Assembly: GCF_058153355.1 (NCBI RefSeq)
Contig: NZ_CM177019.1
Length of the DNA stretch: 64,000 bases
Reading direction: 5' to 3' (one strand)
Each line of letters opens with the position of its first letter. The first letter of the stretch is position 1. Both the position numbers and the translations under genes were made by a program. The notes beneath the pieces are model-generated. The model was not told the DNA's origin. It ran no database searches and worked only from the letters and a program-made list of their open reading frames with translations. Of this stretch, positions 1 through 61,791 are shown piece by piece.

Positions 1-2313
1 ATGGCCGTTAAAGCCTCCGGGCGTTTTGTCCCTCCGTCAGCATTTGCTGCAGGCACCGGTAAGGCGTTTACCGGTGCTTATGCATGGAACGCGCCACGCG
101 AGGCTGTCGGGCGCGAAAGACCCCTTACACGTGACGAGATGCGTCAGGTGCAAGGTGTTTTATCCACGATTAACCGCCTGCCTTACTTTTTGCGCTCGCT
201 GTTTACTTCACGCTATGACTACATCCGGCGCAATAAAAGCCCGGTGCACGGGTTTTATTTCCTCACATCCACTTTTCAGCGTCGTTTATGGCCGCGCATT
301 GAGCGTGTGAATCAGCGCCATGAAATGAACACCGACGCGTCGTTGCTGTTTCTGGCAGAGCGTGACCACTATGCGCGCCTGCCGGGAATGAATGACAAGG
401 AGCTGAAAAAGTTTGCCGCCCGTATCTCATCACAGCTTTTCATGATGTATGAGGAACTCTGCGATGCCTGGGTGGATGCGCATGGCGAGAAAGAATCGCT
501 GTTTACGGATGAGGCGCAGGCTCACCTCTATGGTCATGTTGCTGGCGCTGCACGTGCTTTCAATATTTCCCCGCTCTACTGGAAAAAATACCGTAAAGGA
601 CAGATGACCACGAGGCAGGCATATTCTGCCATTGCCCGCCTGTTTAACGATGAGTGGTGGACTCATCAGCTTAAAGGCCAGCGTATGCGCTGGCATGAGG
701 CGTTACTGATTGCTGTCGGGGAGGTCAATAAAGACCGTTCTCCTTATGCCAGTAAACATGCCATTCGTGATGTGCGTGCGCGCCGCCAGGCAAATCTGGA
801 ATTTCTTAAATCGTGTGACCTTGAAAACAGGGAAACCGGCGAACGCATCGACCTTATCAGTAAGGTGATGGGCAGTATTTCTAATCCTGAAATTCGCCGG
901 ATGGAGCTGATGAACACCATTGCCGGTATTGAGCGTTACGCCGCCGCAGAGGGTGATGTGGGGATGTTTATCACGCTGACCGCGCCGTCAAAGTATCACC
1001 CGACACGTCAGGTCGGAAAAGGCGAAAGTAAAACCGTCCAGCTAAATCACGGCTGGAATGATGAGGCATTTAATCCAAAGGATGCTCAGCGTTATCTCTG
1101 CCGCATCTGGAGCCTGATGCGCACGGCATTCAAGGATAATGATTTACAGGCCTACGGTTTGCGAGTCGTCGAGCCACACCACGACGGAACGCCGCACTGG
1201 CATATGATGCTTTTTTGTAATCCACGCCAGCGTAACCAGATTATTGAAATCATGCGTCGCTACGCGCTCAAAGAGGATGGCGACGAAAGAGGAGCCGCGC
1301 GAAACCGTTTTCAGGCGAAACACCTTAACCGGGGCGGTGCTGCGGGGTATATCGCGAAATACATCTCAAAAAATATCGACGGATATGCACTGGATGGTCA
1401 GCTCGATAATGATACCGGCAGACCGCTGAAAGACACTGCCGCGGCTGTTACCGCATGGGCGTCAACGTGGCGCATCCCGCAATTTAAAACGGTTGGTCTG
1501 CCGACAATGGGGGCTTACCGTGAACTACGCAAATTGCCTCGCGGCGTCAGCATTGCTGATGAGTTTGACGAGCGCGTCGAGGCTGCACGCGCCGCCGCAG
1601 ACAGTGGTGATTTTGCGTTGTATATCAGCGCGCAGGGTGGGGCAAATGTCCCGCGCGATTGTCAGACTGTCAGGGTCGCCCGTAGCCCGTCGGATGACGT
1701 TAACGAGTATGAGGAAGAAGTCGAGAGAGTGGTCGGCATTTACGCGCCGCATCTCGGCGCGCGTCATATTCATATCACCAGAACGACGGACTGGCGCATT
1801 GTTCCGAAAGTGCCGGTCTTTGAGCCTTTGACTTTAAAAAGCGGCATCGCCGCGCCTCGGAGTCCTGTCAATAACTGTGGAAAGCCTGCCAGCAGTGATA
1901 CTTCGTTACCGGCTCCCACACCTTCTGAACATGCCGCAGCAGTGCTTAATCTGGTAGATGACGGTGTTATCGAATGGAGTGACCCGGAGGTTGTGAGGGC
2001 GCTCAGGGATGCATTAAAACACGGCCTGAAAACACCAAATCGTCAGCAAAGAAACGGAAGCCCGTTAAAACTACATGAAATAGCACCGTCGGCCAGACTG
2101 ACCAGGTCGGAACGAATGCAAATCACCCGTATCCGCGTTGACCTTGTTCAGAATGGTATCAGGCCTCAGCGATGGGAGCTTGAGGCGTTGGTTCGAGGAG
2201 CGAGAGTAAATTATGGTGATATGTCATTCAAATTTCCAATTGATGATCGATTTTATGATGATGTTAACTCTTTGAATTTATGGAGTATTGAGTCTCGTGT
2301 GAACTTCACATAA
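1..2313 (+). CDS. A: Phage replication initiation protein gpA (rolling-circle HUH endonuclease)
   Basis: 770-aa ORF; HxH motif (PHWHMML) and catalytic Tyr region (GYIAKYISKN); position before the A-cos cargo region as in P2. Last ~100 nt are AT-rich like the downstream cargo. Confidence 0.9.
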   Translation: MAVKASGRFVPPSAFAAGTGKAFTGAYAWNAPREAVGRERPLTRDEMRQVQGVLSTINRLPYFLRSLFTSRYDYIRRNKSPVHGFYFLTSTFQRRLWPRIERVNQRHEMNTDASLLFLAERDHYARLPGMNDKELKKFAARISSQLFMMYEELCDAWVDAHGEKESLFTDEAQAHLYGHVAGAARAFNISPLYWKKYRKGQMTTRQAYSAIARLFNDEWWTHQLKGQRMRWHEALLIAVGEVNKDRSPYASKHAIRDVRARRQANLEFLKSCDLENRETGERIDLISKVMGSISNPEIRRMELMNTIAGIERYAAAEGDVGMFITLTAPSKYHPTRQVGKGESKTVQLNHGWNDEAFNPKDAQRYLCRIWSLMRTAFKDNDLQAYGLRVVEPHHDGTPHWHMMLFCNPRQRNQIIEIMRRYALKEDGDERGAARNRFQAKHLNRGGAAGYIAKYISKNIDGYALDGQLDNDTGRPLKDTAAAVTAWASTWRIPQFKTVGLPTMGAYRELRKLPRGVSIADEFDERVEAARAAADSGDFALYISAQGGANVPRDCQTVRVARSPSDDVNEYEEEVERVVGIYAPHLGARHIHITRTTDWRIVPKVPVFEPLTLKSGIAAPRSPVNNCGKPASSDTSLPAPTPSEHAAAVLNLVDDGVIEWSDPEVVRALRDALKHGLKTPNRQQRNGSPLKLHEIAPSARLTRSERMQITRIRVDLVQNGIRPQRWELEALVRGARVNYGDMSFKFPIDDRFYDDVNSLNLWSIESRVNFT

Positions 2314-2367: not shown

Positions 2368-3615
2368 ATGGTTATTTATCAAGGTGGTAAGATAATATCT
2401 GAAGATGATTTTTATTCTCATCTTTATTCGTTATGTCAGTTGGATAATGTAGGGGTTCTTTTAGGCGCGGGAGCATCGGTCGGATGTGGCGGCCAAACTA
2501 TGAAGCAGGTATGGCAGTTTTTTAAATATGAACATCCTGATCTATTGAATTTGTTACTAGAAAAATACTTATTGGTTGACAAAACTGAATCTGAACAAGA
2601 TATAGTTAATGTTGAGCTTCTAATTGATGAAGTAACTAAATTCTTGTCTGTGGCCAAAACAAGACGTAATGAAGACGAACAAAAAGAAATTAGTTTAATA
2701 TTAAGTGCTTTGTATAAACAAGTAACAAAGGCTGCATTGTTAACTGGAGAAGAGTTTGGTTGTAAAAATCAAGGGAAGAAAAAACAGTTTAAGTCTCATA
2801 AAGAATTAATTTCAAAGTTGATTTCAAATAGGCAGCCGGGACAATCGGCTCCGGCACTTTTTACTACCAACTATGATTTGGCATTAGAGTGGGCAGCTGA
2901 AGATTTAGGAATTCAGCTATTTAATGGTTTTTCAGGATTGCATACAAGACAATTTTATCCTCAAAATTTTGATTTGGCATTTAGAAATGTCAATGCAAAA
3001 GGGGAGGCTAGATTTGGTCATTATCACGCTTATCTATATAAATTGCATGGCTCTCTTACATGGTATCAGGATGATTTTTTAATAGTTAATGAGATAAGTG
3101 CATCTCAGGCATATGATAATTACATTAAAAATATTATTAATGGTGACGGTTTTTACTATGGTCAACATTTAATTTATCCGGGGGCTAATAAATATAGCCA
3201 TACAATTGGTTTTGTTTACGGTGAAATGTTTAGACGTTTTGGCGAGTTTTTGTCAAAACCTCAAACCGCTTTGTTTATTAATGGGTTTGGGTTTGGTGAT
3301 TATCATATAAACAGAATTGTTTTTGGTGCTTTGTTAAATCCGTCATTTCATGTTGTTATTTATTACCCTGATCTGGAGAATGCTTTAGATAAAGTTAGTA
3401 GAGGCGTTGCTTCTGAAGGTGAAAAGGCAATTGATGCTTTAAAAAATATGCAATTCAATCAAGTGACTATCGTGGGTGGGGGGGCAGATGCTTACTTTGA
3501 TAGTTTTGTGAAACATCTTCCTTATCCGGTGTTGTTCCCAAGAGAAAATACTGTTGATGACTTGGTTGAAGCTATTTCTAAATTGTCTAAAGGGGAAGGG
3601 AATGTCGCATTTTAA
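2368..3615 (+). CDS. SIR2-family (sirtuin-like, putative NAD+-consuming) protein, candidate defense effector
   Basis: 415 aa, AT-rich gene. Gly-rich dinucleotide-binding-like motif GAGASVGCGG (nt 2464-2493), TTNYD motif (nt 2863-2877), LHGS with candidate catalytic His (nt 3046-3048), matching SIR2_2-type signatures from memory. SD-like aagggataatt upstream. Confidence 0.7.
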   Translation: MVIYQGGKIISEDDFYSHLYSLCQLDNVGVLLGAGASVGCGGQTMKQVWQFFKYEHPDLLNLLLEKYLLVDKTESEQDIVNVELLIDEVTKFLSVAKTRRNEDEQKEISLILSALYKQVTKAALLTGEEFGCKNQGKKKQFKSHKELISKLISNRQPGQSAPALFTTNYDLALEWAAEDLGIQLFNGFSGLHTRQFYPQNFDLAFRNVNAKGEARFGHYHAYLYKLHGSLTWYQDDFLIVNEISASQAYDNYIKNIINGDGFYYGQHLIYPGANKYSHTIGFVYGEMFRRFGEFLSKPQTALFINGFGFGDYHINRIVFGALLNPSFHVVIYYPDLENALDKVSRGVASEGEKAIDALKNMQFNQVTIVGGGADAYFDSFVKHLPYPVLFPRENTVDDLVEAISKLSKGEGNVAF

Positions 3616-5422
3616 ACTATCTGAATTATCTGCTATTGGGTATGTCGTTGGTCTGGAGGGCGAAAAAATAAGGATAAATCTTCATGAAGGATTGCAAGGT
3701 AGGCTCGCCTCTCATAGGGATGGTGTTAGTTCTGTTACTCAGCCTGGAGATTTGATCGGTTTTGATGCCGGAAATATTCTGGTTGTGGCTCGAGTTACAG
3801 ATATGGCATTTGTCGAGGCTGATAAAGCACATAAGGCAAAAATAGGTACATCAGATATAGCAGATATGCCGTTAAGGCAAATAATAGCCTATGCAATAGG
3901 TTTTATTAGACGAGATATAGATGGATGTGTGTTTGTTTCGGAAGACTGGAGGTTACCTGCTCTGGGAGCATCCGCTGTCCCGTTAACATCTGATTTTTTA
4001 AATATCGTATATAGTATTGATAAAAATGATCTGGATAAAGCAATTGAGTTAGGAATAGATTCGAGGACTAAATCAGTTAAAATTTTAGCTAGCATTGATA
4101 AATTACTAACCAGGCATATGGCTGTTTTGGGCAGTACTGGATATGGTAAATCTAATTTTAATGCTTTACTTACACGCCGCATTTCAGAACAGTACCCTAA
4201 TGCAAGAATAGTAATTTTTGATATTAATGGCGAGTATTCTCAGGCTTTTGAAGGTGTTGCTAATGTTAAACATACTATTTTAGGTGAGTTACCAAAAGGA
4301 GAGTTTCCAAAACCACCTCTACAGAAAGGAGATATATTTTCTGAGAATGAACATTACTACTATAGAAAAATACCTTATCAAGCATTGGGATTTGCTGGGT
4401 TGATAAAATTACTACGCCCTAGTGATAAGACACAATTACCTGCATTAAGAAATGCGCTTAATGCTATAAATAGTGTTCATTTTTCCGATGATTCATTCTT
4501 TCTTAAGGATGAAGTAGGGGGCGTATTTAATATTTTTGATGATTGTAGAGATGAAGGGCAAGAGCTTTTATCTGCGTGGTTGAGTTTCTTAAGAAGAGGG
4601 ATGCTGTGTAAGGCAAATAAATGGCCGCCGTTTAAAAGTATTGCTAACTTGGTTGCGGAGTTTGGTTGCGTGGCGGCGGATTCGCGAAAAGCTGGATCTA
4701 GTAAACGAGATGCTTTTAGCTATGGTAATGTTCTGCCATTGATTAAGATAATTCAACAGTTATCAGAGGATTCTAGATTCAAGTATGTTGTTGATTTAAA
4801 TGGAGGTGGTGAATTATTAAGTGATGGCAAACATTGGGAATTAGCTATGAGACAGGAAGTTGATTATTTCTTTGGTAAAGAAAAGGGAGAGGAGAATGAC
4901 TGGAATATTCATATTGTTAATTTTAAGCATCTTTCACAAGATCATGCTCCAATGCTGTTAAGTGCATTATTAGAAATGTTTGCTGAAGTTCTCTTTCTTA
5001 GGGGGCAAAACAAAGCTTTTCCAACCGTGTTACTTCTTGAAGAGGCGCACCACTATTTAAGAGATCCTTATTCTGAAGTTGATGCACAAATTAAAGCTTA
5101 TGAAAGACTTGCTAAAGAAGGGCGTAAATTTAAATGTTCACTTATTGTGAGCACACAACGACCATCAGAGCTTTCATCAACAGTATTAGCAATGTGTGCA
5201 AATTGGTTTTCGTTGCGCCTGACAAATGAGCGTGATTTGCAGACTTTACGGTATGCGATGGAAAGTGGAAATGAGTTAATGATTCGGCAGATTTCTGGGC
5301 TTCCAAGAGGAGATGCAATAGCGTTTGGTGCTGCTTTTAATATACCCGTAAGAATTTCAATTCACCCTGCTGTACCCGGTCCGAGATCGTCTGACGCAAG
5401 TTATTCTCAAGAATGGCGATAA
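3602..5422 (+). CDS. HerA/FtsK-like P-loop ATPase, partner of the SIR2 protein
   Basis: About 606 aa from the ATG at 3602 (SD aggggaaggg just upstream; the track ORF starts at 3554). Walker A GSTGYGKS (nt 4130-4153), Walker B-like VLLLEEAHHY (about nt 5029-5058), STQRPSEL motif typical of HerA/VirB4-class ATPases. Start overlaps the SIR2 stop by 14 nt. Confidence 0.7.
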   Translation: MSHFKLSELSAIGYVVGLEGEKIRINLHEGLQGRLASHRDGVSSVTQPGDLIGFDAGNILVVARVTDMAFVEADKAHKAKIGTSDIADMPLRQIIAYAIGFIRRDIDGCVFVSEDWRLPALGASAVPLTSDFLNIVYSIDKNDLDKAIELGIDSRTKSVKILASIDKLLTRHMAVLGSTGYGKSNFNALLTRRISEQYPNARIVIFDINGEYSQAFEGVANVKHTILGELPKGEFPKPPLQKGDIFSENEHYYYRKIPYQALGFAGLIKLLRPSDKTQLPALRNALNAINSVHFSDDSFFLKDEVGGVFNIFDDCRDEGQELLSAWLSFLRRGMLCKANKWPPFKSIANLVAEFGCVAADSRKAGSSKRDAFSYGNVLPLIKIIQQLSEDSRFKYVVDLNGGGELLSDGKHWELAMRQEVDYFFGKEKGEENDWNIHIVNFKHLSQDHAPMLLSALLEMFAEVLFLRGQNKAFPTVLLLEEAHHYLRDPYSEVDAQIKAYERLAKEGRKFKCSLIVSTQRPSELSSTVLAMCANWFSLRLTNERDLQTLRYAMESGNELMIRQISGLPRGDAIAFGAAFNIPVRISIHPAVPGPRSSDASYSQEWR

Positions 5423-5764: not shown

Positions 5765-6799
5765 TCAGCCGTTGTCAGTGTCCAGTGAGTAGTTTTTAAA
5801 GCGGATGACCTCCTGACCGAGCCAGCCGTTTATCTCGCGGATCCTGTCCTGTAACGGGATAAGCTCATTGCGGACAAAGACCTTTGCCACTTTCTCAATA
5901 TCACCCAGCGACCCGACGTTCTCCGGCTTGCCGCCCATCAACTGAAAGGGGATGCGGTGCGCGTCCAGCAGGTCAGCGGCGCTGGCTTTTTTGATATTAA
6001 AAAAATCGTCCTTCGTTGCCACTTCACTGAGCGGGATAATTTTAATGCCGTCAGCTTTCCCCTGCGGGGCATAGAGAAACAGGTTTTTAAAGTTGTTGCG
6101 GCCTTTCGACTTCACCATGTTTTCGCGAAGCATTTCGATATCGTTGCGATCCTGCACGGCATCGGTAACGTACATGATGTATCCGGCATGAGCGCCGTTT
6201 TCGTAATACTTGCGGCGGAACAGCGTGGCTGACTCATTCAGCCAGGCAGAGTTAAGGGCGCTGAGATATTCCGGCAGGCCGTACAGCTCCTGATTAATAT
6301 CCGGCTCCAGCAGATGAAACACGGAGCCAGGTGCGAAGGCTGTCGGCTCGTTGAAGGAAGGCACCCACCAGTAAACATCCTCCTCCACGCCACGGCGGGT
6401 ATATTTTGCCGGTGAGGTTTCCAGTCTGATGACCTTGCCGGTGGTGCTGTAACGCTTTTCCAGAAACGCATTGCCGAACACCAGAAAATCCAGCACAAAG
6501 CGGCTGAAATCCTGCTGGGAAAGCCACGGATGCGGGATAAATGTCGAGGCCAGAATATTGCGTTTGACGTAAATCGGGGAGCTGTGATGCACGGCAGCAC
6601 GCAGGCTTTTTGCCAGACCGGTAAAGCTGATTGGTGGCTCATACCATCTGCCGTTACTGATGCATTCGACGTAATCCAGAATGTCACGGCGGTCGAGTAC
6701 CGGCACCGGCTCACCAAAGGTGAATGCCTCCATTTTCGGGGCGCTGGCGGTCATTTTTTTTGCCGCAGGTTGCGGTGTTTTCCCTTTTTTCTTGCTCAT
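5765..6799 (-). CDS. Q: Portal protein gpQ
   Basis: 344 aa (P2 Q size); adjacent to cos; start overlaps the P stop (ATGA). Confidence 0.9.
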   Translation of the reverse strand: MSKKKGKTPQPAAKKMTASAPKMEAFTFGEPVPVLDRRDILDYVECISNGRWYEPPISFTGLAKSLRAAVHHSSPIYVKRNILASTFIPHPWLSQQDFSRFVLDFLVFGNAFLEKRYSTTGKVIRLETSPAKYTRRGVEEDVYWWVPSFNEPTAFAPGSVFHLLEPDINQELYGLPEYLSALNSAWLNESATLFRRKYYENGAHAGYIMYVTDAVQDRNDIEMLRENMVKSKGRNNFKNLFLYAPQGKADGIKIIPLSEVATKDDFFNIKKASAADLLDAHRIPFQLMGGKPENVGSLGDIEKVAKVFVRNELIPLQDRIREINGWLGQEVIRFKNYSLDTDNG

Positions 6800-8571
6800 C
6801 AGTAAAACTCCAGAATGGTGGATGTCAGCGGGGTGCTGATACCGGCGGTGAGTGGCTCATTTAACAGGGCGTGCATGGTCGCCCAGGCGAGGTCGGCGTG
6901 GCTGGCTTCCTCGCTGCGGCTGGCCTCATAGGTGGCGCTGCGCCCGCTGCTGGTCATGGTCTTGCGGATAGCCATAAACGAGCTGGTGATGTCGGTGGCG
7001 CTGACGTCGTATTCCAGACAGCCACGGCGGATAACGTCTTTTGCCTTGAGCACCATTGCGGTTTTCATTTCCGGTGTGTAGCGGATATCGCGCGCGGCGG
7101 GATAGAACGAGCGCACGAGCTGGAACACGCCGACACCGAGGCCGGTGGCATCAATACCGATGTATTCGACGTTGTATTTTTCGGTGAGTTTGCGGATGGA
7201 TTCTGCCTGAGTGGCAAAGTCCATGCCTTTCCACTGGTGACGCTCAAGGATCCTGAATTTGCCACCGGCCACCACCGGCGGTGCCAGCACCACGCATCCG
7301 GCGCTGTCGCCACGGTGTGACGGGTCGTAACCAATCCATACCGGACGTGAGCCGAACGGATTGGCGGCAAACGGCGCATAGTCTTCCCATTCTTCCAGCG
7401 TGTCGATCATGCAGCGTTGCAGCTCCTCGAACGGGAACACCGACGCCTTGTCGTCAACAAATTCACACATGAACAGGTTTTTAAAATCGTCGGCGCTGTT
7501 TTCGCGTTTGAGCTGCTCAATGTCGAACAGCGTGCAGCCGCCTTTCAGGGCGTCCTCAATGGTGACAATCTGCCGCCACTGGCCGTCCGCACAGAGAAGC
7601 CCACCGGCAAGGGCGTTATGACTGACGTCGATTTCCACGCGTTCAGCGGCGCTGGCGCGTCCCCGGTTAAACAGTTCACCCGACCAGAACGGGTAGGCGT
7701 CGTGCGCCAGCGTGGACGGGGTGGAGAAATAGGTCGAGCGCAGGTGACTCTGTGAGGCCATACCTGATGCCACCTTACGCAGTACCTGAAAATTCGGGAT
7801 CCAGAAAATCTCGTCGACGTACAGGTCGCCGTTATGGCTCTGTGCGGTGTTGGAGTTGGTGCCGAGAAAAATCAGTTTTGCGCCGTTATTGCCCAGGACA
7901 ATCGGGTCACCGGTCAGGTCAACGTCAACCAGCCGGGCAAAGGCGATGATGTATTCACGGAACACATACGCCTGCGTTTTACTGGCCGACAGAAAAATCT
8001 GGTTATGACCGGTTTTCAGGGCGCGCAGCAGCGCCTCGCGGGAAAAATAAAACGTCGCGCCAATCTGGCGGGATTTCAGGATATCGCGGATGCGGTGCTC
8101 AAGCCCGGCGCGATACCAGTGCAACTGATATTCGAAAGACTGCTCAAAGAAAATCTGCTCCAGCTTTTCGATGGCCTCGTCACTGAAAAAATTCTTTTTC
8201 GGTTTGCGACGCCCGCCTTTGTTGCGGTTAGCGACGTTCGGATTAAGGTCTGCCTCGTTGCCGGTCTGACTGTAACGGTTGACCCGTGCCAGTCGTTCAA
8301 TCTGGCGTCCGAGCAGGTCAATTTCCTTGAAGTCACCGCCGGTTTTCTGCGGTTTGATGATGAGCTGGGTCAGCCGCGCTTCCAGACTCATTTCGACACG
8401 GCTGATGGGGGCAACGCTGTCCCAGCCGTCGCGCTGTTTCCAGCTCTGCACCGTCGGGCGTTTCATCTGCAACATGGCGGCAATCTGCGGCACGGAAAAC
8501 CCCTGCCAGTACAGCAGCGCCGCCTGACGACGCGGGTCGTGTAAAAGAGTGGTGTCTGTGGTGATGGTCAT
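6799..8571 (-). CDS. P: Terminase large subunit (ATPase) gpP
   Basis: About 590 aa from the ATG at 8571 (SD gaggt); P2 synteny, divergent from O. Confidence 0.88.
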   Translation of the reverse strand: MTITTDTTLLHDPRRQAALLYWQGFSVPQIAAMLQMKRPTVQSWKQRDGWDSVAPISRVEMSLEARLTQLIIKPQKTGGDFKEIDLLGRQIERLARVNRYSQTGNEADLNPNVANRNKGGRRKPKKNFFSDEAIEKLEQIFFEQSFEYQLHWYRAGLEHRIRDILKSRQIGATFYFSREALLRALKTGHNQIFLSASKTQAYVFREYIIAFARLVDVDLTGDPIVLGNNGAKLIFLGTNSNTAQSHNGDLYVDEIFWIPNFQVLRKVASGMASQSHLRSTYFSTPSTLAHDAYPFWSGELFNRGRASAAERVEIDVSHNALAGGLLCADGQWRQIVTIEDALKGGCTLFDIEQLKRENSADDFKNLFMCEFVDDKASVFPFEELQRCMIDTLEEWEDYAPFAANPFGSRPVWIGYDPSHRGDSAGCVVLAPPVVAGGKFRILERHQWKGMDFATQAESIRKLTEKYNVEYIGIDATGLGVGVFQLVRSFYPAARDIRYTPEMKTAMVLKAKDVIRRGCLEYDVSATDITSSFMAIRKTMTSSGRSATYEASRSEEASHADLAWATMHALLNEPLTAGISTPLTSTILEFY

Positions 8572-8744
8572 GAATACCTCGCCGTGATGAATACACGGCA
8601 AGGCTACTGAGTCGCGCCCCGCGATTCGCTAAGGTGCTGTTGTGTCAGTGATAAGCCATCCGGGACTGATGGCGGAGGATGCGCATCGTCGGGAAACTGA
8701 TGCCGACATGTGACTCCTCTAATCACTATTCAGGACTCCTGACA

Positions 8745-11577: not shown

Positions 11578-12087
11578 ATGATGACGCTGATTATTCCGCG
11601 AAAGGAGGCTCCCGTGTCCGGTGAGGGTACGGTGGTCATCCCGCAACCGGCAGGCGACGAGCCGGTGATTAAAAACACGTTCTTTTTTCCCGATATCGAC
11701 CCGAAGCGTGTCAGGGAACGTATGCGCCTTGAGCAGACCGTCGCCCCCGCCCGCCTGCGTGAGGCCATCAAGTCAGGCATGGCGGAAACGAATGCGGAGC
11801 TGTACGAGTACCGCGAACAGAAAATTGCCGCCGGTTTTACGCGTCTGGCGGACGTTCCGGCGGACGACATCGACGGTGAAAGCATCAAAGTTTTTTACTA
11901 CGAGCGCGCTGTGTGTGCGATGGCGACCGCGTCGCTTTATGAGCGTTACCGCGGCGTGGATGCCAGTGCGAAAGGCGACAAGAAGGCCGACAGCATTGAC
12001 AGCACCATTGATGAGCTGTGGCGGGATATGCGCTGGGCGGTGGCGCGCATCCAGGACAAGCCGCGCTGCATCGTGAGTCAAATCTGA
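11578..12087 (+). CDS. L: Head completion protein gpL
   Basis: 169 aa from MMTLIIPRKE (track ORF starts at 11518); P2 size. Confidence 0.8.
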   Translation: MMTLIIPRKEAPVSGEGTVVIPQPAGDEPVIKNTFFFPDIDPKRVRERMRLEQTVAPARLREAIKSGMAETNAELYEYREQKIAAGFTRLADVPADDIDGESIKVFYYERAVCAMATASLYERYRGVDASAKGDKKADSIDSTIDELWRDMRWAVARIQDKPRCIVSQI

Positions 12088-12293: not shown

Positions 12294-12575
12294 ATGACAG
12301 CAGAAGAAAAAAGCGTCCTGTCGCTTTTCATGATTGGGGTGCTGATTGTTGTCGGCAAGGTGCTTGCCGGTGGTGAACCCATCACCCCGCGTCTGTTTAT
12401 CGGGCGCATGTTGCTCGGTGGTTTTGTCTCGATGGTTGCCGGTGTTGTTCTGGTGCAGTTTCCTGACCTGTCACTGCCTGCGGTGTGCGGCATCGGCTCC
12501 ATGCTGGGTATCGCCGGTTATCAGGTGATTGAGATTGCCATTCAGCGCCGCTTTAAGGGCAGGGGGAAACAGTAA
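12294..12575 (+). CDS. Y: Holin gpY
   Basis: 93 aa with hydrophobic transmembrane segments; first gene of the lysis cassette. Confidence 0.8.
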   Translation: MTAEEKSVLSLFMIGVLIVVGKVLAGGEPITPRLFIGRMLLGGFVSMVAGVVLVQFPDLSLPAVCGIGSMLGIAGYQVIEIAIQRRFKGRGKQ

Positions 12576-13072
12576 TGCCGGTAATTAACACGCATCAGAA
12601 TATCGCCGCCTTTCTCGACATGCTGGCCGTGTCCGAAGGGACGGCGAATCATCCGCTGACGAAAAACCGGGGCTATGACGTGATAGTCACCGGACTGGAC
12701 GGAAAGCCGGAAATTTTCACCGACTACAGTGACCACCCGTTCGCACATGGCCGACCGGCGAAGGTGTTTAACCGTCGCGGTGAAAAATCCACGGCCTCCG
12801 GTCGCTATCAGCAGCTTTACCTGTTCTGGCCGCACTACCGCAAACAGCTTGCCCTGCCGGATTTCAGTCCGTTGTCACAGGACAGACTTGCCATTCAGTT
12901 GATCCGCGAACGCGGTGCACTGGATGACATCCGGGCGGGACGTATTGAGCGCGCCATTTCACGCTGTCGCAATATCTGGGCGTCCCTGCCGGGTGCCGGT
13001 TACGGTCAGCGTGAGCATTCACTGGAAAAACTGGTCACCGTCTGGCGTACCGCCGGCGGCGTACCGGCTTAA
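12575..13072 (+). CDS. K: Endolysin gpK (lysozyme family)
   Basis: 165 aa; lambda R-like lysozyme signature (SEGT...GYDV); P2 position. Confidence 0.85.
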   Translation: MPVINTHQNIAAFLDMLAVSEGTANHPLTKNRGYDVIVTGLDGKPEIFTDYSDHPFAHGRPAKVFNRRGEKSTASGRYQQLYLFWPHYRKQLALPDFSPLSQDRLAIQLIRERGALDDIRAGRIERAISRCRNIWASLPGAGYGQREHSLEKLVTVWRTAGGVPA

Positions 13073-13086
13073 ACGGAGTAAACACC

Positions 13087-13512
13087 ATGAAGAAATTATC
13101 CCTTTCACTGATGCTGAACGTGTCGCTGGCGCTGATGCTGGCACTGTTCCTGATTTACCCGCAGAGCGTGGCCGTCAGTTTTGTCGCCACCTGGGCGATT
13201 CTGGCGACGGTTATCTGTGTGGTTGCCGGTGGTGTCGGCGTGTATGCCACTGAGTATGTACTTGAACGCTACGGGCGGGAGCTGCCGCCGGAATCGCTGG
13301 CCGTGAAGATTGTCACGTCGCTGTTTTTGCAGCCGGTGCCGTGGCGCAGACGGGCGGCGGCTCTGGTGGTGATGGTGGCGACATTTATCTCGCTGGTCGC
13401 CGCCGGGTGGATTTTTACCGCGCTGATTTACCTCGTGGCGTCGGTGTTCTTCTGGCTGATACGTACGGCCTGCCGTCAGCGTTTTGAGGGGCGGGAGCTA
13501 TGTCAAGGCTGA
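13087..13512 (+). CDS. lysA: Lysis timing membrane protein LysA
   Basis: 141 aa, multiple hydrophobic helices; P2 position. Confidence 0.7.
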   Translation: MKKLSLSLMLNVSLALMLALFLIYPQSVAVSFVATWAILATVICVVAGGVGVYATEYVLERYGRELPPESLAVKIVTSLFLQPVPWRRRAAALVVMVATFISLVAAGWIFTALIYLVASVFFWLIRTACRQRFEGRELCQG

Positions 13513-13925
13513 TGATTGTACTGATTGTGTTGTTATCGCTGGCGTTGGCGGGTCTGTTTCTGGTGAAACACAAAAATGCCAGCCTGCGCGCTTCGCTGGA
13601 CAGGGCGAACAGCGTCGCCAGCGGGCAGCAGACGACCATCACCATGCTGAAAAATCAGCTTCATGTTGCGCTCACCAGGGCAGACAAAAACGAGCTGGCG
13701 CAGGTGGCACTGCGTCAGGAACTGGAGAACGCCGCGAAGCGTGAAGCACAGCGCGAGAAAACCATCACGAGGTTACTCAATGAAAACGAAGATTTTCGCC
13801 GCTGGTACGGTGCTGACCTGCCTGATGCTGTGCGCCGGTTGCACCAGCGCCCGGCCTGCACTGACGCCAGTGATTGTCCCCAACGCCTGCCCGAAAGTGA
13901 GTCTTTGCCCGATGCCGGGCAGTGA
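13500..13925 (+). CDS. lysB: Rz-like spanin LysB
   Basis: 141 aa, N-terminal TM then coiled-coil-like region; P2 position. Confidence 0.75.
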   Translation: MSRLMIVLIVLLSLALAGLFLVKHKNASLRASLDRANSVASGQQTTITMLKNQLHVALTRADKNELAQVALRQELENAAKREAQREKTITRLLNENEDFRRWYGADLPDAVRRLHQRPACTDASDCPQRLPESESLPDAGQ

Positions 13926-14070
13926 CCCGGAGACGAACGGCGATTTAAGTGCCGATATCCGGCAGCTTGAGAACGCGCTGGCACGCTGTGCCAGCCAGGT
14001 AAAAATGATTAAACACTGTCAGGACGAAAACGATGCTCAAACCCGACAGCCTGCGCAGGGCGCTGACTGA
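13780..14070 (+). CDS. lysC: Rz1-like outer-membrane lipoprotein spanin LysC, out of frame, start embedded in lysB
   Basis: 96 aa from MKTKIFAAGTVLTCLMLCAGCTS (lipobox LCAGC), Pro-rich; start lies within lysB in another frame, as in P2. Confidence 0.65.
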   Translation: MKTKIFAAGTVLTCLMLCAGCTSARPALTPVIVPNACPKVSLCPMPGSDPETNGDLSADIRQLENALARCASQVKMIKHCQDENDAQTRQPAQGAD

Positions 14071-14500
14071 TGCCGTCACGGTGTTGAAAACTAACCCCGA
14101 TATGCTGCGGATATTCGTGGATAACGGGAGTATTGCCTCCACACTGGCGGCGTCGTTGTCATTCGAAAAGCGTTACACGCTCAATGTCATTGTGACCGAC
14201 TTTACCGGTGATTTTGACCTGCTCATCGTGCCGGTGCTGGCGTGGCTGCGGGAAAATCAGCCCGACATCATGACCACCGACGAAGGCCAGAAAAAGGGCT
14301 TCACGTTTTATGCGGACATCAACAATGACAGCAGCTTTGATATCAGTATCAGCCTGATGCTGACCGAGCGCACGCTGGTCAGTGAGGTTGACGGCGCGTT
14401 GTATGTGAAGAATATCCCGGAACCCACGCCGCCGGAGCCCGTCACCCGCCCGATGGAGCTTTATATCAATGGCGAACTGGTGAGCAAGTGGGATGAATGA
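14033..14500 (+). CDS. R: Tail completion protein gpR
   Basis: 155 aa; P2 size and position. Confidence 0.8.
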   Translation: MLKPDSLRRALTDAVTVLKTNPDMLRIFVDNGSIASTLAASLSFEKRYTLNVIVTDFTGDFDLLIVPVLAWLRENQPDIMTTDEGQKKGFTFYADINNDSSFDISISLMLTERTLVSEVDGALYVKNIPEPTPPEPVTRPMELYINGELVSKWDE

Positions 14501-14945: not shown

Positions 14946-15011
14946 TTGTGCCATTCCCGACACCTCATCGTCACATTGCCGCCGGTATGACCCGGCGGCA
15001 TCCTTCCCGTT

Positions 15012-17437: not shown

Positions 17438-19648
17438 ATGAGCACAAAATTCAGAACCGTTATCACCACTGCCGGTGCAGCAAAGCTGGCAGCGGCAACC
17501 GCGCCGGGAGGGCGGAAGGTCAACATTACCACGATGGCCGTCGGGGATGGCGGTGGTAAATTGCCTGTCCCGGATGCCGGACAGACCGGGCTTATCCACG
17601 AAGTCTGGCGACATGCGCTGAACAAAATCAGCCAGGACAAACGAAACAGTAATTATATTATCGCAGAGCTGGTTATTCCGCCGGAGGTGGGCGGTTTCTG
17701 GATGCGTGAGCTTGGCCTGTACGATGATGCGGGAACGTTAATTGCCGTGGCGAACATGGCCGAAAGTTATAAGCCTGCCCTTGCCGAAGGCTCAGGGCGT
17801 TCGCAGACCTGCCGTATGGTCATCATCGTCAGCAGTGTGGCCTCAGTGGAGCTGACCATTGACACCACAACGGTGATGGCAACGCAGGATTATGTTGATG
17901 ACAAAATTGCAGAGCACGAACAGTCACGACGTCACCCGGACGCCTCGCTGACCGCAAAAGGTTTTACTCAGTTAAGCAGCGCGACCAACAGCACGTCTGA
18001 AACACTGGCCGCAACGCCGAAAGCGGTAAAGGCCGCCTATGACCTTGCTAACGGGAAATATACCGCACAGGACGCCACCACAGCGCGAAAAGGGCTTGTC
18101 CAGCTCAGTAGCGCCACCAATAGCGATTCTGAAACGCTCGCCGCAACACCAAAAGCGGTAAAAGCAGCGTATGACCTTGCTAACGGGAAATATACCGCAC
18201 AGGACGCCACCACAGCGCGAAAAGGCCTTGTCCAGCTCAGTAGCGCCACCAACAGTGATTCTGAAACGCTTGCAGCAACGCCAAAGGCGGTAAAGGCAGC
18301 ATATGACCTTGCTAACGGGAAATACACTGCACAGGACGCCACCACAGCGCGAAAAGGTCTTGTCCAGCTCAGTAGCGTCACCAACAGTGATTCTGAAACC
18401 CTCGCGGCAACGCCAAAAGCAGTGAAGTCTGCCTATGACAATGCTGAAAAACGTCTTCAGAAAGATCAGAACGGTGCGGATATTCCGGGAAAGGATACCT
18501 TCACGAAAAATATCGGTGCCTGTCGTGCTTATAGCGGCGCTTTGAGCACTGAAGCCGGAAACTGGACAACCGCGCAGTTTATTGACTGGCTAGAGTCTCA
18601 GGGAGCCTTTAATCATCCCTACTGGATGTGCAAGTGTTCCTGGTCATACGGTAATAACAAAATTATTACCGATACTGACTGTGGGACGATTCATCTTGCA
18701 GGTTGCGTGATTGAGGTTATGGGTGTTAAAGCAGCAATGACCATTCGTGTGACCACTCCGAGTACATCAAGCAGTGGTGGTACCACCAGTGCGCAATTCA
18801 CGTATATCAATCACGGAGCTGATTATGCGCCGGGCTGGCGACGCGACTACAATACGAAAAATAAGCAACCGGCTTTTGCATTAGGGAAAACAGGAAATAC
18901 GGTTGCAAATAATAAAGCAGTAGGATGGAACTGGGACAGTGGTGCTTATTGTGCACAGGATGGCGGAGCATCAAAAATGGTGCTGCATTTTTACACGGGT
19001 GAGGGAAGTTGTCCGGCAATGCAGTTTCTTGTGGATTATAAAAACAGGGGGATTTTTTACAGGTCGGCACGTGATGGGTATGGATTTGAGGCTGACTGGT
19101 CAGAGTTTTATACCACATCACGAAAGCCAACACCTGCGGATATTCTTGCTCTGGCATTATCAGGCGGAAGCATGTCAGGCAGCATAAAATTTATCAATGA
19201 TGCCTTCCTGATTTGGGAAAGAAACACTGACTGGGCGAAAATTGGATTTAAAAATGATTCAGATGCTGATTCTGACTCATTCATGTGGTTTGAAACTGGT
19301 GATAATGGCAATGAATATTTTAAATGGCGCATCAGGTCTGGCAGCACAACAAAAGATCTGATGACGCTTAAGTCTGATGCACTACGGGTTACCGGGCAGG
19401 TGATACCATCAAATTTCAGCAATTTTGACTCCCGCTATGTCAGGGATCTCCGGCTTGGTGGTGCCGCCACATACAAACCTGCGAACAATGGCATGACATG
19501 GACACATCAGGCACCGTCCGGGTGTGTATATACCGGCATTATTGTTCAGGATACCGGCTCAAACTCTGCCGATAACATTGGTGGCGTATATTACAGACCG
19601 GTGCAGAAATACATTAACGGGACATGGTACAACGTGGCGCAGGTATAA
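17438..19648 (+). CDS. H: Tail fiber protein gpH, with internal tandem repeats and a lower-GC distal domain
   Basis: 736 aa; conserved N-terminus, about four copies of a ~44-aa repeat, then an AT-richer C-terminal receptor-binding region. Confidence 0.85.
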   Translation: MSTKFRTVITTAGAAKLAAATAPGGRKVNITTMAVGDGGGKLPVPDAGQTGLIHEVWRHALNKISQDKRNSNYIIAELVIPPEVGGFWMRELGLYDDAGTLIAVANMAESYKPALAEGSGRSQTCRMVIIVSSVASVELTIDTTTVMATQDYVDDKIAEHEQSRRHPDASLTAKGFTQLSSATNSTSETLAATPKAVKAAYDLANGKYTAQDATTARKGLVQLSSATNSDSETLAATPKAVKAAYDLANGKYTAQDATTARKGLVQLSSATNSDSETLAATPKAVKAAYDLANGKYTAQDATTARKGLVQLSSVTNSDSETLAATPKAVKSAYDNAEKRLQKDQNGADIPGKDTFTKNIGACRAYSGALSTEAGNWTTAQFIDWLESQGAFNHPYWMCKCSWSYGNNKIITDTDCGTIHLAGCVIEVMGVKAAMTIRVTTPSTSSSGGTTSAQFTYINHGADYAPGWRRDYNTKNKQPAFALGKTGNTVANNKAVGWNWDSGAYCAQDGGASKMVLHFYTGEGSCPAMQFLVDYKNRGIFYRSARDGYGFEADWSEFYTTSRKPTPADILALALSGGSMSGSIKFINDAFLIWERNTDWAKIGFKNDSDADSDSFMWFETGDNGNEYFKWRIRSGSTTKDLMTLKSDALRVTGQVIPSNFSNFDSRYVRDLRLGGAATYKPANNGMTWTHQAPSGCVYTGIIVQDTGSNSADNIGGVYYRPVQKYINGTWYNVAQV
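17950..18440 (+). repeat. In-frame tandem repeats (~132 bp x ~3.8) inside tail fiber gene H
   Basis: Repeated peptide GLVQLSSATNSxSETLAATPKAVKAAYDLANGKYTAQDATTARK; copies differ at synonymous sites, so the array is not a very recent duplication. Confidence 0.8.
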
Positions 19649-20568: not shown

Positions 20569-21096
20569 ATGGACTGGAAAGATCTTGCATCAACCGCTGT
20601 GTATACAGGTATGACTGATGAAAATGAAAGCATATGGGAACGTGTTGATGGGGTTGACGTTGCCTTCATAGGTGCCTTTCTTACTGCGCACTTGAGCCTT
20701 GAAAAGTATATTACTGATTATCTTGGATTAAGATATCCTTCGTTAGCTTGGGGTGATGCAAAACTCACATTTTCACAAAAAATAGCTTTAATACAACATG
20801 AGCCTGCAAAATCCCCTTATGATGAAATATATTTAAGAATAAAAGACTTTAACAGCATAAGAAATAAAATCAGTCATCAATTGAATTATCAGATTACGGA
20901 TAAAGAAAAAAGTAAGTTTGTGGACTTCTACATGAAGATTACTAAAGCCAGTAAAACTAAACCAAATATTGATATTGATAACATGGCAGATTTGTTGGAT
21001 TTTTTCGTATCGATGACAAAATCCTATTTTGCTAGTGCTATTTCTTATTATCACTATAATAAAAAGGTTGCAGGTAAAAGTAATAAAATTGATTAA
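20569..21096 (+). CDS. Hypothetical protein with HEPN-like Rx4H motif; candidate single-gene anti-phage or abortive-infection cargo at the Z/fun hotspot
   Basis: 175 aa, strongly AT-rich, between G and FI. R98-N-K-I-S-H103 (nt 20860-20877) fits the Rx4-6H motif of HEPN RNase domains. SD aaaaggataaagc-ATG. Confidence 0.5.
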   Translation: MDWKDLASTAVYTGMTDENESIWERVDGVDVAFIGAFLTAHLSLEKYITDYLGLRYPSLAWGDAKLTFSQKIALIQHEPAKSPYDEIYLRIKDFNSIRNKISHQLNYQITDKEKSKFVDFYMKITKASKTKPNIDIDNMADLLDFFVSMTKSYFASAISYYHYNKKVAGKSNKID

Positions 21097-27778: not shown

Positions 27779-27997
27779 ATGTTTCATTGTCCTTTATGCC
27801 AGCATGCCGCACATGCGCGTACAAGTCGCTATATCACTGACACGACAAAAGAGCGTTATCACCAGTGCCAGAACGTGAATTGCAGCGCCACGTTCATCAC
27901 TTATGAGTCGGTACAGCGATACATCGTGAAGCCGGGAGAAGTCCACGCCGTAAGGCCGCACCCGTTGCCGTCAGGGCAGCAAATTATGTGGATGTAA
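27779..27997 (+). CDS. ogr: Late-gene transcriptional activator Ogr (zinc finger)
   Basis: 72 aa from MFHCPLCQHAAHARTSRY (track ORF starts at 27716); CxxC...CxxxxC zinc-binding pattern. Confidence 0.85.
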   Translation: MFHCPLCQHAAHARTSRYITDTTKERYHQCQNVNCSATFITYESVQRYIVKPGEVHAVRPHPLPSGQQIMWM

Positions 27998-28008
27998 TTA
28001 CATACAGG

Positions 28009-28034
28009 AAGCCCCTCAGTCGAGGGGCTTTTTT
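28009..28034 (+). terminator. Rho-independent terminator after ogr
   Basis: gcccctc-agtc-gaggggc hairpin followed by tttttt. Confidence 0.6.
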
Positions 28035-28098
28035 GTCGATGTGGTCAATGTGTGGACGTGACCAGAAATAAATCCTTTTATTTCATTGTATTACGCGT

Positions 28099-28125
28099 AA
28101 AAAATAAGCCCGTGTAAGGGAGATT
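28099..28125. other. attR: Prophage attR core (P2 att core sequence)
   Basis: aaaaaataagcccgtgtaagggagatt matches the P2 att core as I recall it; coincides with the cyaR terminator. Confidence 0.6.
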
Positions 28126-28185
28126 ACACAGGCTAAGGAGGTGGTTCCTGGTACAGCTAGCATTTTATGGGTTATGTTTTTCAGC
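28099..28185 (-). ncRNA. cyaR: Hfq-dependent sRNA CyaR (RyeE)
   Basis: Minus-strand sequence gctgaaaaacataacccataaaatgctagctgtaccaggaaccacctccttagcctgtgtaatctcccttacacgggcttatttttt matches CyaR from memory, with terminator hairpin and U-run; downstream of yegQ as in K-12. Confidence 0.8.
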
Positions 28186-28219
28186 GAAACGGATGATAAC
28201 CTTAATAAATGCAGCTGTA

Positions 28220-28235
28220 TGTGATCGGTTTCTAA
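28220..28235 (-). promoter_or_regulatory. Putative CRP site of the cyaR promoter (class II position)
   Basis: TGTGA-N6-TCTAA centred about 42 nt upstream of the inferred CyaR 5' end; CyaR is known to be CRP-activated. Confidence 0.4.
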
Positions 28236-28269
28236 GAATTTTCCATCCGGGAAAAATAATCGAAATTAA

Positions 28270-29631
28270 TCACTTACCGTGGGGGTTACGCGTGGTTTCC
28301 CCGGAGAAATTACGCATCAGCAGCGCGTAATTTAGCTCAAGATCCTGCGGGACCGGGATCCACACAGTATAACCATCGCCCGGTGCGACCGGCATTGCTT
28401 CGCCTTTGGCGTTTTCCATATGCTCAAGGGTAAAGTTAATGTTCCCTTGCGGCGTCATCAGCTCAAGGCTGTCGCCAACGGAGAATTTATTTTTCACCGC
28501 TACCGCCGCGAGGTCGCCCTTGCGCTCACCGGTAAACTCACCAACAAACTGCTGGCGGTCAGAAACTGAATAACCGTATTCGTAGTTCTGATAATCGTCG
28601 TGAGTATGACGACGCAGGAAACCTTCGGTATAGCCACGATGCGCCAGACCTTCCAGAGTTTCCAGCAGGCTGGTATCGAATGGTTTTCCCGCAGCTGCGT
28701 CATCGATAGCTTTACGGTAAACCTGCGCGGTGCGTGCGCAATAGTAGAAAGATTTTGTACGACCTTCGATTTTCAGCGAATGCACGCCCATTTTGGTCAG
28801 GCGTTCAACGTGGGCGATAGCGCGCAGATCTTTCGAGTTCATGATGTAAGTGCCGTGCTCATCTTCAAACGCGGTCATATACTCGCCCGGACGCTGAGCT
28901 TCTTCGATCATAAACACTTTGTCGGTTGGCGCGCCGATACCCAGCGTCGGCTCAACATTTTGCACCGGAATCGGCTCGTACTTGTGCACGATGTTGCCAA
29001 CGTCATCTTCTTTCCCTTCCTGGACGTTGTACTCCCAGCGGCAGGCGTTGGTGCAGGTGCCCTGGTTCGGGTCGCGCTTGTTGATATAGCCAGAGAGCAG
29101 GCAGCGACCGGAGTAGGCCATGCACAGCGCGCCGTGAACGAAGATCTCTACCTCCATATCCGGCACCTGATTGCGGATCTCTTCAATCTCTTCCAGCGAC
29201 AGCTCGCGAGAGAGGATCACGCGGGTCAGGCCCATTTGCTGCCAGAATTTCACCGTCGCCCAGTTCACGGCGTTAGCCTGTACCGAGAGATGGATCGGCA
29301 TTTCAGGGAAGTGCTCACGCACCAGCATAATCAGCCCTGGATCGGACATTATTAGCGCATCCGGCCCCATTTCCACCACCGGTTTCAGGTCACGGATAAA
29401 GGTTTTCAGCTTGGCGTTGTGCGGTGCAATGTTGACCACAACATAAAACTTTTTCCCCAGCGCATGGGCTTCATTAATGCCGAGCTGGAGATTTTCGTGG
29501 TTGAATTCGTTGTTTCGCACACGCAGGGAGTAACGCGGCTGGCCCGCATAAACAGCATCTGCGCCATAAGCGAAAGCGTAACGCATATTTTTCAGCGTTC
29601 CCGCCGGGGAAAGGAGTTCCGGTTTAAACAT
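28270..29631 (-). CDS. yegQ: Peptidase U32-family protein YegQ (TrhP)
   Basis: 453 aa, sequence recognised as YegQ; K-12 synteny. Confidence 0.9.
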   Translation of the reverse strand: MFKPELLSPAGTLKNMRYAFAYGADAVYAGQPRYSLRVRNNEFNHENLQLGINEAHALGKKFYVVVNIAPHNAKLKTFIRDLKPVVEMGPDALIMSDPGLIMLVREHFPEMPIHLSVQANAVNWATVKFWQQMGLTRVILSRELSLEEIEEIRNQVPDMEVEIFVHGALCMAYSGRCLLSGYINKRDPNQGTCTNACRWEYNVQEGKEDDVGNIVHKYEPIPVQNVEPTLGIGAPTDKVFMIEEAQRPGEYMTAFEDEHGTYIMNSKDLRAIAHVERLTKMGVHSLKIEGRTKSFYYCARTAQVYRKAIDDAAAGKPFDTSLLETLEGLAHRGYTEGFLRRHTHDDYQNYEYGYSVSDRQQFVGEFTGERKGDLAAVAVKNKFSVGDSLELMTPQGNINFTLEHMENAKGEAMPVAPGDGYTVWIPVPQDLELNYALLMRNFSGETTRNPHGK

Positions 29632-61340: not shown

Positions 61341-61345
61341 TCGTC

Positions 61346-61789
61346 ATGTTTAACAACATCTTAGTTGTCTGTGTCGGCAATATTTGCCGTTCCCCGACGG
61401 CGGAACGCTTACTGCAACGTTATCACCCGGAGCTGAAAGTGGAGTCCGCTGGACTCGGCGCGCTGGTCGGTAAGGGCGCTGATCCTACCGCTATCAGCGT
61501 CGCCGCAGAACATCAACTGTCTCTGGAAGGTCACTGTGCCCGTCAAATCAGCCGCCGTCTGTGTCGCAACTACGACCTGATTTTGACCATGGAAAAGCGC
61601 CATATCGAACGCTTATGCGAGATGGCACCCGAGATGCGCGGCAAAGTGATGCTGTTTGGTCACTGGGATAACGAATGTGAAATCCCCGATCCGTATCGCA
61701 AAAGCCGGGAAACGTTTGCAGCGGTGTACACATTACTTGAACGGTCTGCCCGCCAGTGGGCGCAGGCATTGAACGCAGAGCAGGTATAA
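61346..61789 (+). CDS. wzb: Low-molecular-weight protein-tyrosine phosphatase Wzb
   Basis: 147 aa, CX5R motif CVGNICRS. Confidence 0.95.
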   Translation: MFNNILVVCVGNICRSPTAERLLQRYHPELKVESAGLGALVGKGADPTAISVAAEHQLSLEGHCARQISRRLCRNYDLILTMEKRHIERLCEMAPEMRGKVMLFGHWDNECEIPDPYRKSRETFAAVYTLLERSARQWAQALNAEQV

Positions 61790-61791
61790 GA

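Follow-up and report, generated by a model that had tools for sequence, protein, structure and literature searches.

The 64-kb stretch of DNA that was analysed (hereafter the window) includes part of a P2-like (Peduovirus) prophage, carried by an Escherichia chromosome, in which the genes lysB and lysC are read in different frames over part of their length. This arrangement raises the question of whether both frames encode proteins, whether these proteins form a spanin, to which class of spanins the pair belongs, and at which codon the second gene starts. As detailed below, the region almost certainly encodes the two-component spanin of the prophage, and lysB and lysC are here a well-characterised, intact, and already known gene pair.

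With regard to the geometry of the locus, the ORF list places lysB, the i-spanin gene, at 13500..13925 on the plus strand (ATG to stop, 141 aa), and lysC, coding for the o-spanin prolipoprotein, at 13780..14070 on the same strand (ATG to stop, 96 aa, with a mature form of 76 aa from Cys21). The lysC frame is +1 relative to that of lysB, with a start offset of 280 nt. The two genes share a dual-coding segment of 146 nt (13780..13925, plus strand), read as lysB codons 94-141 in frame 0 and as lysC codons 1-49 in frame +1, and lysC ends 145 nt beyond the lysB stop. Its 3' end overlaps by 38 nt (14033..14070, plus strand) the start of gene R, which is read in the third frame. Direct reading and the ORF list are in full agreement with the coordinates of lysB and lysC, the 145-nt extension, and the overlap with R reported in a preliminary description of this DNA, and re-inspection revealed no disrupted frame in either gene. 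That description had labelled the pair 'embedded' in its title, which is wrong, as lysC continues for 145 nt after the lysB stop and into R, and 'overlapped' in its text, which is right. Kongari et al. (2018) recognised three classes, exemplified by lambda (embedded), P2 (overlapped), and T4 (separated), P2 being listed as 'ovl' in SpaninDB (PMC6139136). In the lambda-type embedded class, the o-spanin gene lies wholly inside the i-spanin gene, and this is not the case for lysC, whose start lies inside lysB in another frame and whose end lies past the lysB stop, as in the overlapped class; the PGAP note on lysC likewise reads 'not fully embedded'. The frame of P2 lysC and its stop inside R have been described by Lynch et al. 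(2010), who draw the same contrast between embedded and overlapped genes (PMC3091744).

The assignment to P2 lysB and lysC, already made in the preliminary description, is firmly established by alignment with P2 (NC_001895), which reveals a base-for-base identical geometry and 96% protein identity, and by equivalog matches far above their cutoffs. In P2, lysB occupies 7922-8347 and lysC 8202-8492, and R begins at 8455, all lengths, offsets, and overlaps being equal to those of the window; the lysC/R overlap of P2 (8455-8492) is the equivalent of 14033-14070 here. Over the 2.2-kb lysis cassette, the DNA is 97.4% identical to that of Peduovirus P2 and close relatives. LysB shares 136 of 141 residues with P2 LysB (NP_046767.1) in a gapless alignment, the five substitutions being V9I, V16L, N38S, M130L, and P135S. 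LysC shares 92 of 96 residues with P2 LysC (NP_757382.1; UniProt SPAN2_BPP2), also without gaps and with equivalent start and stop, and differs by R2K, P25R, P28L, and Q51E. Of these, R2K is the only difference within the signal peptide, while the linker immediately following the lipidated Cys has lost two prolines (CTSAPPAPTP in P2, CTSARPALTP here). The two loci are also alike in the GAGGT Shine-Dalgarno sequence of lysC, the 20-aa signal ending in LCAG before the lipobox Cys, all cysteines, and a hairpin inside lysC, as well as in their neighbourhood, with Y, K, and lysA upstream and R and S downstream.

Family models lead to the same assignment. LysB reaches 171.5 bits against a cutoff of 92.75 with TIGR03495 (phage_LysB equivalog, 'Rz-like lysis system protein LysB'), and LysC 124.7 bits against a cutoff of 27 with NF038368 (P2_Rz1 equivalog, 'Rz1-like lysis system protein LysC'), as well as 61.9 bits against a cutoff of 27 with Pfam PF23793 LysC. 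The PHROG families matched are annotated as Rz-like spanins, LysB falling into phrog_89. The exact 141-aa and 96-aa proteins have already been deposited in public databases under the names LysB and LysC, in keeping with the earlier remark that the pair is not novel. An exact copy (100% identity) of the 571-nt region occurs in at least nine RefSeq E. coli genomes, and matches to it are present in 1603 of 5426 complete E. coli genomes. Markov et al. reportedly defined lysC in 2004 and provided genetic evidence for it in P2. For the overlapped class, this phage serves as the type example, and its spanin is among those that have been tested experimentally (PMC6139136).

Both genes belong to a lysis cassette in which Y, K, lysA, lysB, and lysC follow one another contiguously over 12294-14070, all on the plus strand. 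The first gene of the cassette, Y (12294..12575; PF04550 Phage_holin_3_2, 2.6e-42), codes for the holin, identical to P2 Y at 93 of 93 residues, and K (12575..13072; phrog_90; glycoside hydrolase family 24 according to PGAP) for the endolysin, identical to P2 K at 165 of 165. The following gene, lysA (13087..13512; phrog_162; 131/141 residues identical to P2 LysA), encodes a membrane protein affecting lysis timing, is annotated in P2 as 'nonessential; affects timing of lysis', and overlaps the start of lysB by 13 nt. Downstream, also on the plus strand, R (14033..14500; PF06891 P2_Phage_GpR, 3.2e-45; 152/155 residues identical to P2 R) codes for a tail completion protein and is not part of the spanin. 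The cassette had previously been described as intact, and it is: Y and K are 100% identical to their P2 counterparts, and lysA, lysB, lysC, R, and S are all full length without internal stops. Elsewhere in the prophage, gene A, coding for the replication endonuclease, runs off the left end of the window (1-2313), Q lies at 5765-6799 on the minus strand, the late genes from Q to D together with ogr are arranged in P2 order, and host genes begin at about 28.27 kb.

The signals required for late expression are also preserved. The late-promoter control region of the O operon was placed by homology at 8635..8705 on the plus strand, with the activator (Ogr) site at 8635-8665 and the transcription start at 8705. 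The divergent P/O late-promoter region containing it is identical over 173 of 173 nt to P2 3000-3172, the segment in which P2 carries the corresponding annotations, and ogr is intact (27779-27997). A hairpin of sequence GCTGGCAC-GCT-GTGCCAGC, with an 8-bp stem in the predicted fold, is located inside lysC (13977..13995, plus strand). It is identical in sequence to P2 8399-8417, which carries the annotation 'putative transcription attenuator; O operon'. As an intrinsic terminator, this hairpin was rejected, no U-run being found after the stem and the terminator scan remaining silent; the 86-nt fold around it is not unusually stable (z = -0.5).

It could be argued that the genes, albeit intact, sit in a prophage that is either defective or silent at all times, so that the spanin would never be made. 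Such a reading touches expression only, not gene identity. As the left end of the window falls within gene A, the integrase and immunity region, with int, C, and cox, lies outside the view, and P2 prophages are not known to be inducible by the SOS response. Against it stand the presence at full length of all late genes from Q to ogr, together with the identity of the P/O late-promoter region to that of P2 and the intact ogr, and we regard a silent or defective prophage as rather unlikely. With its complete P2-like lysis cassette, the prophage is probably capable of lysing its host in the event of lytic growth, although the biological import of the finding is small.

The second question of weight concerns the lipidated residue of LysC. 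The signal peptide (aa 1-20, MKTKIFAAGTVLTCLMLCAG) and the Cys21 codon, as read directly from the DNA, extend over 13780..13842 on the plus strand, the Cys21 codon being a TGC at 13840-13842. Two basic residues, K2 and K4, precede a hydrophobic stretch covering residues 5-20, which leads into A-G-C21. LysC has the signal peptidase II signal that is looked for in an o-spanin, though position -3 is occupied by Cys. The preliminary description had noted a lipobox LCAGC; the string L17-C18-A19-G20-C21 is indeed present, but it is not a canonical lipobox. Since position -3 is Cys, C-A-G-C matches neither the consensus [LVI][ASTVI][GAS]C (PMC6139136) nor the PROSITE core pattern. The SpaninDB entry for P2 LysC gives a signal of the same 20 aa and reports two candidate cleavage sites from LipoP (after 20 and after 17), with no Prosite match. 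Cys21 is invariant in the 10 homologues that were aligned and is in register with the LSGC and LAGC lipoboxes of distant members. According to the established rule of Asp at +2 in lipoprotein sorting, the N-terminus of mature LysC, which reads C-T-S and has no Asp at +2, is consistent with sorting to the outer membrane. From these features, LysC would be an outer-membrane lipoprotein lipidated on Cys21.

Three cysteines (C14, C18, and C21) are found in the signal region, and the pair could also be a spanin with Cys18 as the lipidated residue, following cleavage after Leu17, the second of the LipoP sites noted in SpaninDB for P2 LysC. This appears quite improbable. Cys18 is replaced by Leu in the homologues of SEN8, Klebsiella ST11, Pseudomonas BR319a, and Burkholderia Momento, whereas Cys21 is kept throughout and is preceded by canonical LSG or LAG in the homologues without Cys18; further, residue -1 of Cys18 is Leu, outside the [GAS] of the consensus (PMC6139136). 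Cys14 was also considered as a lipidation site and rejected: although it is invariant, the L-P motif of LysB dictates its codon, the hexamer TGCCTG being invariant. In phage Momento, the dipeptide 'AC' occurs also at C14, which a simple pattern picks, while alignment indicates C21 as the equivalent residue. Lipidation on Cys21 is retained in what follows.

The start codon of lysC bears directly on this signal. A Shine-Dalgarno sequence, GAGGT, lies inside lysB at 13769..13773 (plus strand), 6 nt upstream of the ATG at 13780, and the identical GAGGT is marked in SpaninDB as that of P2 lysC. Its duplex with the 3' tail of 16S rRNA was estimated at -6.6 kcal/mol for 13780, compared with -3.0 for the ATG at 13825 and +0.4 for that at 13663. 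When every start codon in the six frames of the 64-kb window was scanned (ORFs of at least 50 aa), a relaxed lipoprotein-signal rule was passed at only four loci; besides lysC, these are a gene for a host lipoprotein at 60201 and a pair of short antisense ORFs. On the strength of the Shine-Dalgarno duplex and the conservation of the signal peptide, the starts at 13663 (longest ORF), 13825 (PGAP), and about 13912 (52-aa stubs) were rejected, and 13780, the start given in the preliminary description, is the right one. A low level of initiation at 13825 might still produce a second, non-exported LysC isoform, modulating spanin activity or lysis timing; or, in a milder version, the conserved hairpin at 13977-13995 might act as an attenuator tuning R and S relative to the lysis genes. 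We mention these proposals as speculation and consider them very improbable. For the putative short isoform, an analogy may be seen in the dual-start arrangement of holin and antiholin.

A more radical version, in which the true start is the internal ATG at 13825 (Met16; 81 aa, MLCAGC...) or a later one yielding a stub, so that the product would lack an export signal and fail to qualify as a lipoprotein, is encouraged by public annotation. RefSeq/PGAP places lysC of E. coli C41 at the equivalent of 13825-14070 (81 aa), this exact allele is annotated in the 81-aa form on 242 contigs against 19 for the 96-aa form, and the records of SW9, EtG, GCS667, and ST11-OXA245phi3.1 give lysC as an ORF of 48 to 52 aa. 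The ATG at 13825, however, has no usable Shine-Dalgarno sequence, its duplex being less than half as strong as that of 13780, and the 15 codons upstream of it encode a charged-then-hydrophobic signal peptide kept in every homologue, out to Burkholderia and Pasteurella. In most of the records listed, tblastn matches to LysC begin at query residue 1, the NF038368 alignment starts at residue 4, and both the curated P2 record and SpaninDB contain a 96-aa LysC. An exclusive start at 13825 or beyond is therefore scarcely credible.

Kongari et al. found the start of the o-spanin gene wrongly annotated in 64 of 528 systems and describe this error as common (PMC6139136). Some phage records omit lysC entirely. 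Such stub and omitted annotations fit the survey result that o-spanins are often missing or have a wrong start (PMC6139136). The commonest public form, of 81 aa, starts too late to include the charged end of the LysC signal peptide and retains little of its hydrophobic part, so automated screens for lipoproteins or spanins will miss LysC. The practical value of the locus lies in this annotation issue, the start at 13780 being, on the above grounds, the right one and the commonest public start the wrong one.

The conservation of lysC extends far beyond P2. A tblastn search with LysC gave matches in 282 phage records, 252 of them covering at least 80% of the query, and the frame, the signal peptide, and the Cys are kept in P2-like phages of Salmonella, Erwinia, Yersinia, Klebsiella, Burkholderia, Pseudomonas, and Pasteurella. 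In each of the 10 homologues compared, which include an Escherichia phage, lysC is read in the +1 frame of lysB and shows the overlapped arrangement, the overlap measuring 131-170 nt and the extension 94-145 nt. Common to the 10 LysC proteins without exception are the lipobox Cys, C37, C43, and C70, together with an NGxL motif; in the LysB homologues, a W...LP...R motif is likewise invariant. Diversity was estimated on close relatives from IMG/VR (95-99% identity; 75 full-length loci, of which 49 gapless and 46 distinct), a sample of shallow divergence. Among the 46 distinct relatives, 13.7% of sites segregate in the lysB/lysC overlap compared with 27.0% in lysB-only DNA (Fisher p=0.002), and a single site out of 38 in the lysC/R overlap. 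Long spurious overlapping ORFs abound in GC-rich phage DNA, and many occur in the window (e.g., 11708-12076 and 13484-13744), so ORF length alone proves nothing for lysC, yet the idea that its +1 frame is a chance opening, with lysB as the only gene, was rejected and has virtually no chance of being correct, given family models far above their cutoffs (NF038368 and PF23793), wide conservation across the 282 records with invariant cysteines and motif, and the lower diversity of the overlap.

The overlap also imposes reciprocal constraints on the two proteins. Because position 2 of the lysC codons is position 3 of the lysB codons, each of the five substitutions between P2 and the window in the lysB/lysC overlap changes the amino acid in only one of the two frames and leaves the other protein unaltered. 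The W102 codon of LysB (TGG) fixes G9 of LysC (GGN), and the invariant hexamer TGCCTG encodes both the L/V-P of LysB (L107-P108) and C14-L15 of LysC. Conversely, the lipobox Cys codon of LysC (TGY) limits LysB residues 114-115 to L or M, then H, R, Q, or F (xTG, then a codon starting with C or T). The invariance of G9, C14, and L15 in the LysC signal peptide may most simply be explained as a by-product of the LysB motif. The locus is a clean teaching example of dual coding.

The predicted architecture of the two proteins is that of a spanin pair. LysB harbours a predicted membrane helix at about residues 4-22 (13509-13565), with a maximal 19-residue Kyte-Doolittle hydropathy of 3.11 at residue 4, and this hydrophobic segment is followed by K23-H24-K25. 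The AlphaFold2 model, built on a 10-sequence alignment, shows residues 3 to 95 as one continuous helix (pLDDT 80-94) and further contains two short helices; from about residue 117 onwards, the chain is disordered. LysB has the single N-terminal transmembrane domain and the mostly alpha-helical periplasmic domain that define an i-spanin, and its topology would be N-in/C-out. The LysC model, a weaker one (mean pLDDT 63), comprises the signal helix (6-19), a disordered linker (20-56), and a helix at 57-88 (pLDDT about 86), whose codons are located downstream of the lysB stop. Mature LysC counts 76 aa, with 10.5% Pro. The periplasmic cysteines, C120 and C126 in LysB and C37, C43, C70, and C80 in mature LysC, could take part in intermolecular disulfides, and their numbers (two and four, respectively) equal the SpaninDB counts for P2. 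A search for solved structures of LysB or LysC relatives found none, returning only non-significant matches to coiled-coil proteins.

On the basis of studies on lambda Rz/Rz1 and on P2, from which topology, lipidation, complex formation, and membrane fusion can be extrapolated, the following mechanism can be proposed. Late in the lytic cycle, lysB and lysC would be transcribed within the Ogr-activated O operon. LysB would insert its N-terminal helix into the inner membrane in an N-in/C-out orientation and extend a long alpha-helical rod into the periplasm, while LysC, translated in the +1 frame from its own ribosome-binding site inside lysB, would be exported, lipidated on Cys21, and cut by signal peptidase II after Gly20. 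The periplasmic ends of LysB and LysC would bind each other, forming a complex that passes through the peptidoglycan mesh and reaches across the periplasm. Once the holin Y has opened the inner membrane and the endolysin K has removed the peptidoglycan, the spanin complexes would be free to change shape, and would then draw the inner and outer membranes together and fuse both, leading to destruction of the outer membrane and phage release.

Among the known systems close to this pair are, besides P2, the homologues of other Peduoviridae (SW9, EtG, SEN8/Fels-2, Burkholderia KL3, KS14, and Momento, Pseudomonas BR319a, and Pasteurella Pmp6), with 25-75% protein identity. The distant members of this family possess canonical lipoboxes (LSGC, LAGC) and lack C120 and C126 of LysB, and in KS14 and KL3 the lysC/R overlap amounts to only 8 bp (PMC3091744).

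In the embedded prototype, lambda Rz/Rz1, as in LysB/LysC, an inner-membrane protein of type II whose periplasmic domain is helical is paired with a small lipoprotein of the outer membrane, the gene of which occupies the +1 frame, and the pair acts at the end of lysis, once holin and endolysin have done their work. However, Rz1 is encoded wholly inside Rz, whereas lysC extends 145 nt past lysB, and mature Rz1 is a proline-rich and unstructured protein of 40 aa (PMC6139136), compared with 76 aa and a predicted C-terminal helix (57-88) for mature LysC. No significant sequence similarity was detected between Rz/Rz1 and LysB/LysC, the only match being a weak one to a second Rz-like PHROG (E=1e-4). 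The expression 'classic Rz/Rz1-type', used in the preliminary description, captures the kind of spanin correctly but is unfortunate as wording, lambda Rz/Rz1 being of the embedded class and unrelated in sequence at a significant level. By analogy, LysB and LysC would work like Rz and Rz1, but without sequence kinship. The same role, disruption of the outer membrane, is fulfilled in T4 by PseT.3/PseT.2, whose genes are separated and whose sequences are unrelated (PMC6139136), and in T1 by gp11, also unrelated in sequence, a unimolecular spanin with both anchors in one protein (PMC6139136).

Divergence from P2 is not uniform across the lysis cassette. Whereas Y and K (12294-13072) are identical to their P2 counterparts at the protein level (100% identity), LysA (13087-13512) carries 10 substitutions over 141 residues, and this protein also displays the highest non-synonymous diversity among relatives. 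This pattern suggests that lysA is under relaxed or diversifying selection, or is mosaic.

For the lysC allele found in the window, the RefSeq/PGAP form is an 81-residue protein starting at Met16 (13825-14070), a start that removes most of the signal peptide. Among the contigs carrying this allele, 242 have the 81-residue form, versus 19 with the correct 96-residue form. Furthermore, four phage records contain lysC stubs of 48 to 52 residues, and the gene is left out of some others. Within lysC, a plus-strand hairpin with an 8-bp stem and a 3-nt loop (13977-13995) is identical to a feature named 'putative transcription attenuator; O operon' in the P2 record. No U-run follows this hairpin, and the stability of the fold around it is unremarkable (z = -0.5).

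Downstream, S and V are separated by only 66 nt (14946-15011). In P2, the non-essential orf30 lies on the opposite strand between these two genes, whereas the prophage in the window lacks it. The tail-fibre gene H (17438-19648) harbours a plus-strand tandem repeat (17978-18439) composed of 3.5 copies of a 132-nt unit with 89% matches, encoding repeated 44-residue blocks of the tail-fibre shaft. The length of H varies among prophages, since its counterpart in a prophage of E. coli C41 exceeds it by 108 nt, and the number of repeats is possibly the part that varies.

A plus-strand ORF encoding 175 residues (20569-21096) lies in a gap of 32% GC between the tail-fibre assembly gene G and the sheath gene FI, which corresponds to the Z/fun cargo slot of P2. 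Searches of Pfam and PADLOC returned no match for this ORF, its sole family match being phrog_5483, of unknown function. A homologue with 91% identity, annotated 'hypothetical protein', is present in one phage record, vB_EcoM-569R9. The ORF may represent an uncharacterised exclusion or defence gene.

At its right end, the prophage adjoins the minus-strand yegQ/trhP gene (28270-29631; region 27998-29631), and the top E. coli match to this junction reaches only 98.4%. In many E. coli genomes, ogrK and a remnant of the D gene are found at the yegQ/trhP site. The large minus-strand ORFs further right are presumably baeSR-mdtABCD-like; beyond them lie a lipoprotein gene at 60201, with a 20-residue signal sequence, and two further ORFs (60201-63954), which we take to be probably wza-wzb-wzc.

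Between gene A and the portal gene Q, in the position of the P2 tin/old cargo slot, lies a plus-strand AT-rich island (2368-5422; 34-40% GC, compared with about 55% in its flanks). It codes for a 415-residue SIR2-family protein (PADLOC SIR2, 623.9 bits) and, from the ATG at 3602, a 606-residue HerA ATPase (PADLOC HerA, 901.5 bits), which together make up a SIR2-HerA anti-phage defence pair. This cargo is present in 23 of 5426 E. coli genomes (query coverage of at least 80%). The lysB-lysC region of the window has a 100% identical counterpart in a prophage of E. coli C41, and there the tin/old slot holds the cdtABC toxin genes.
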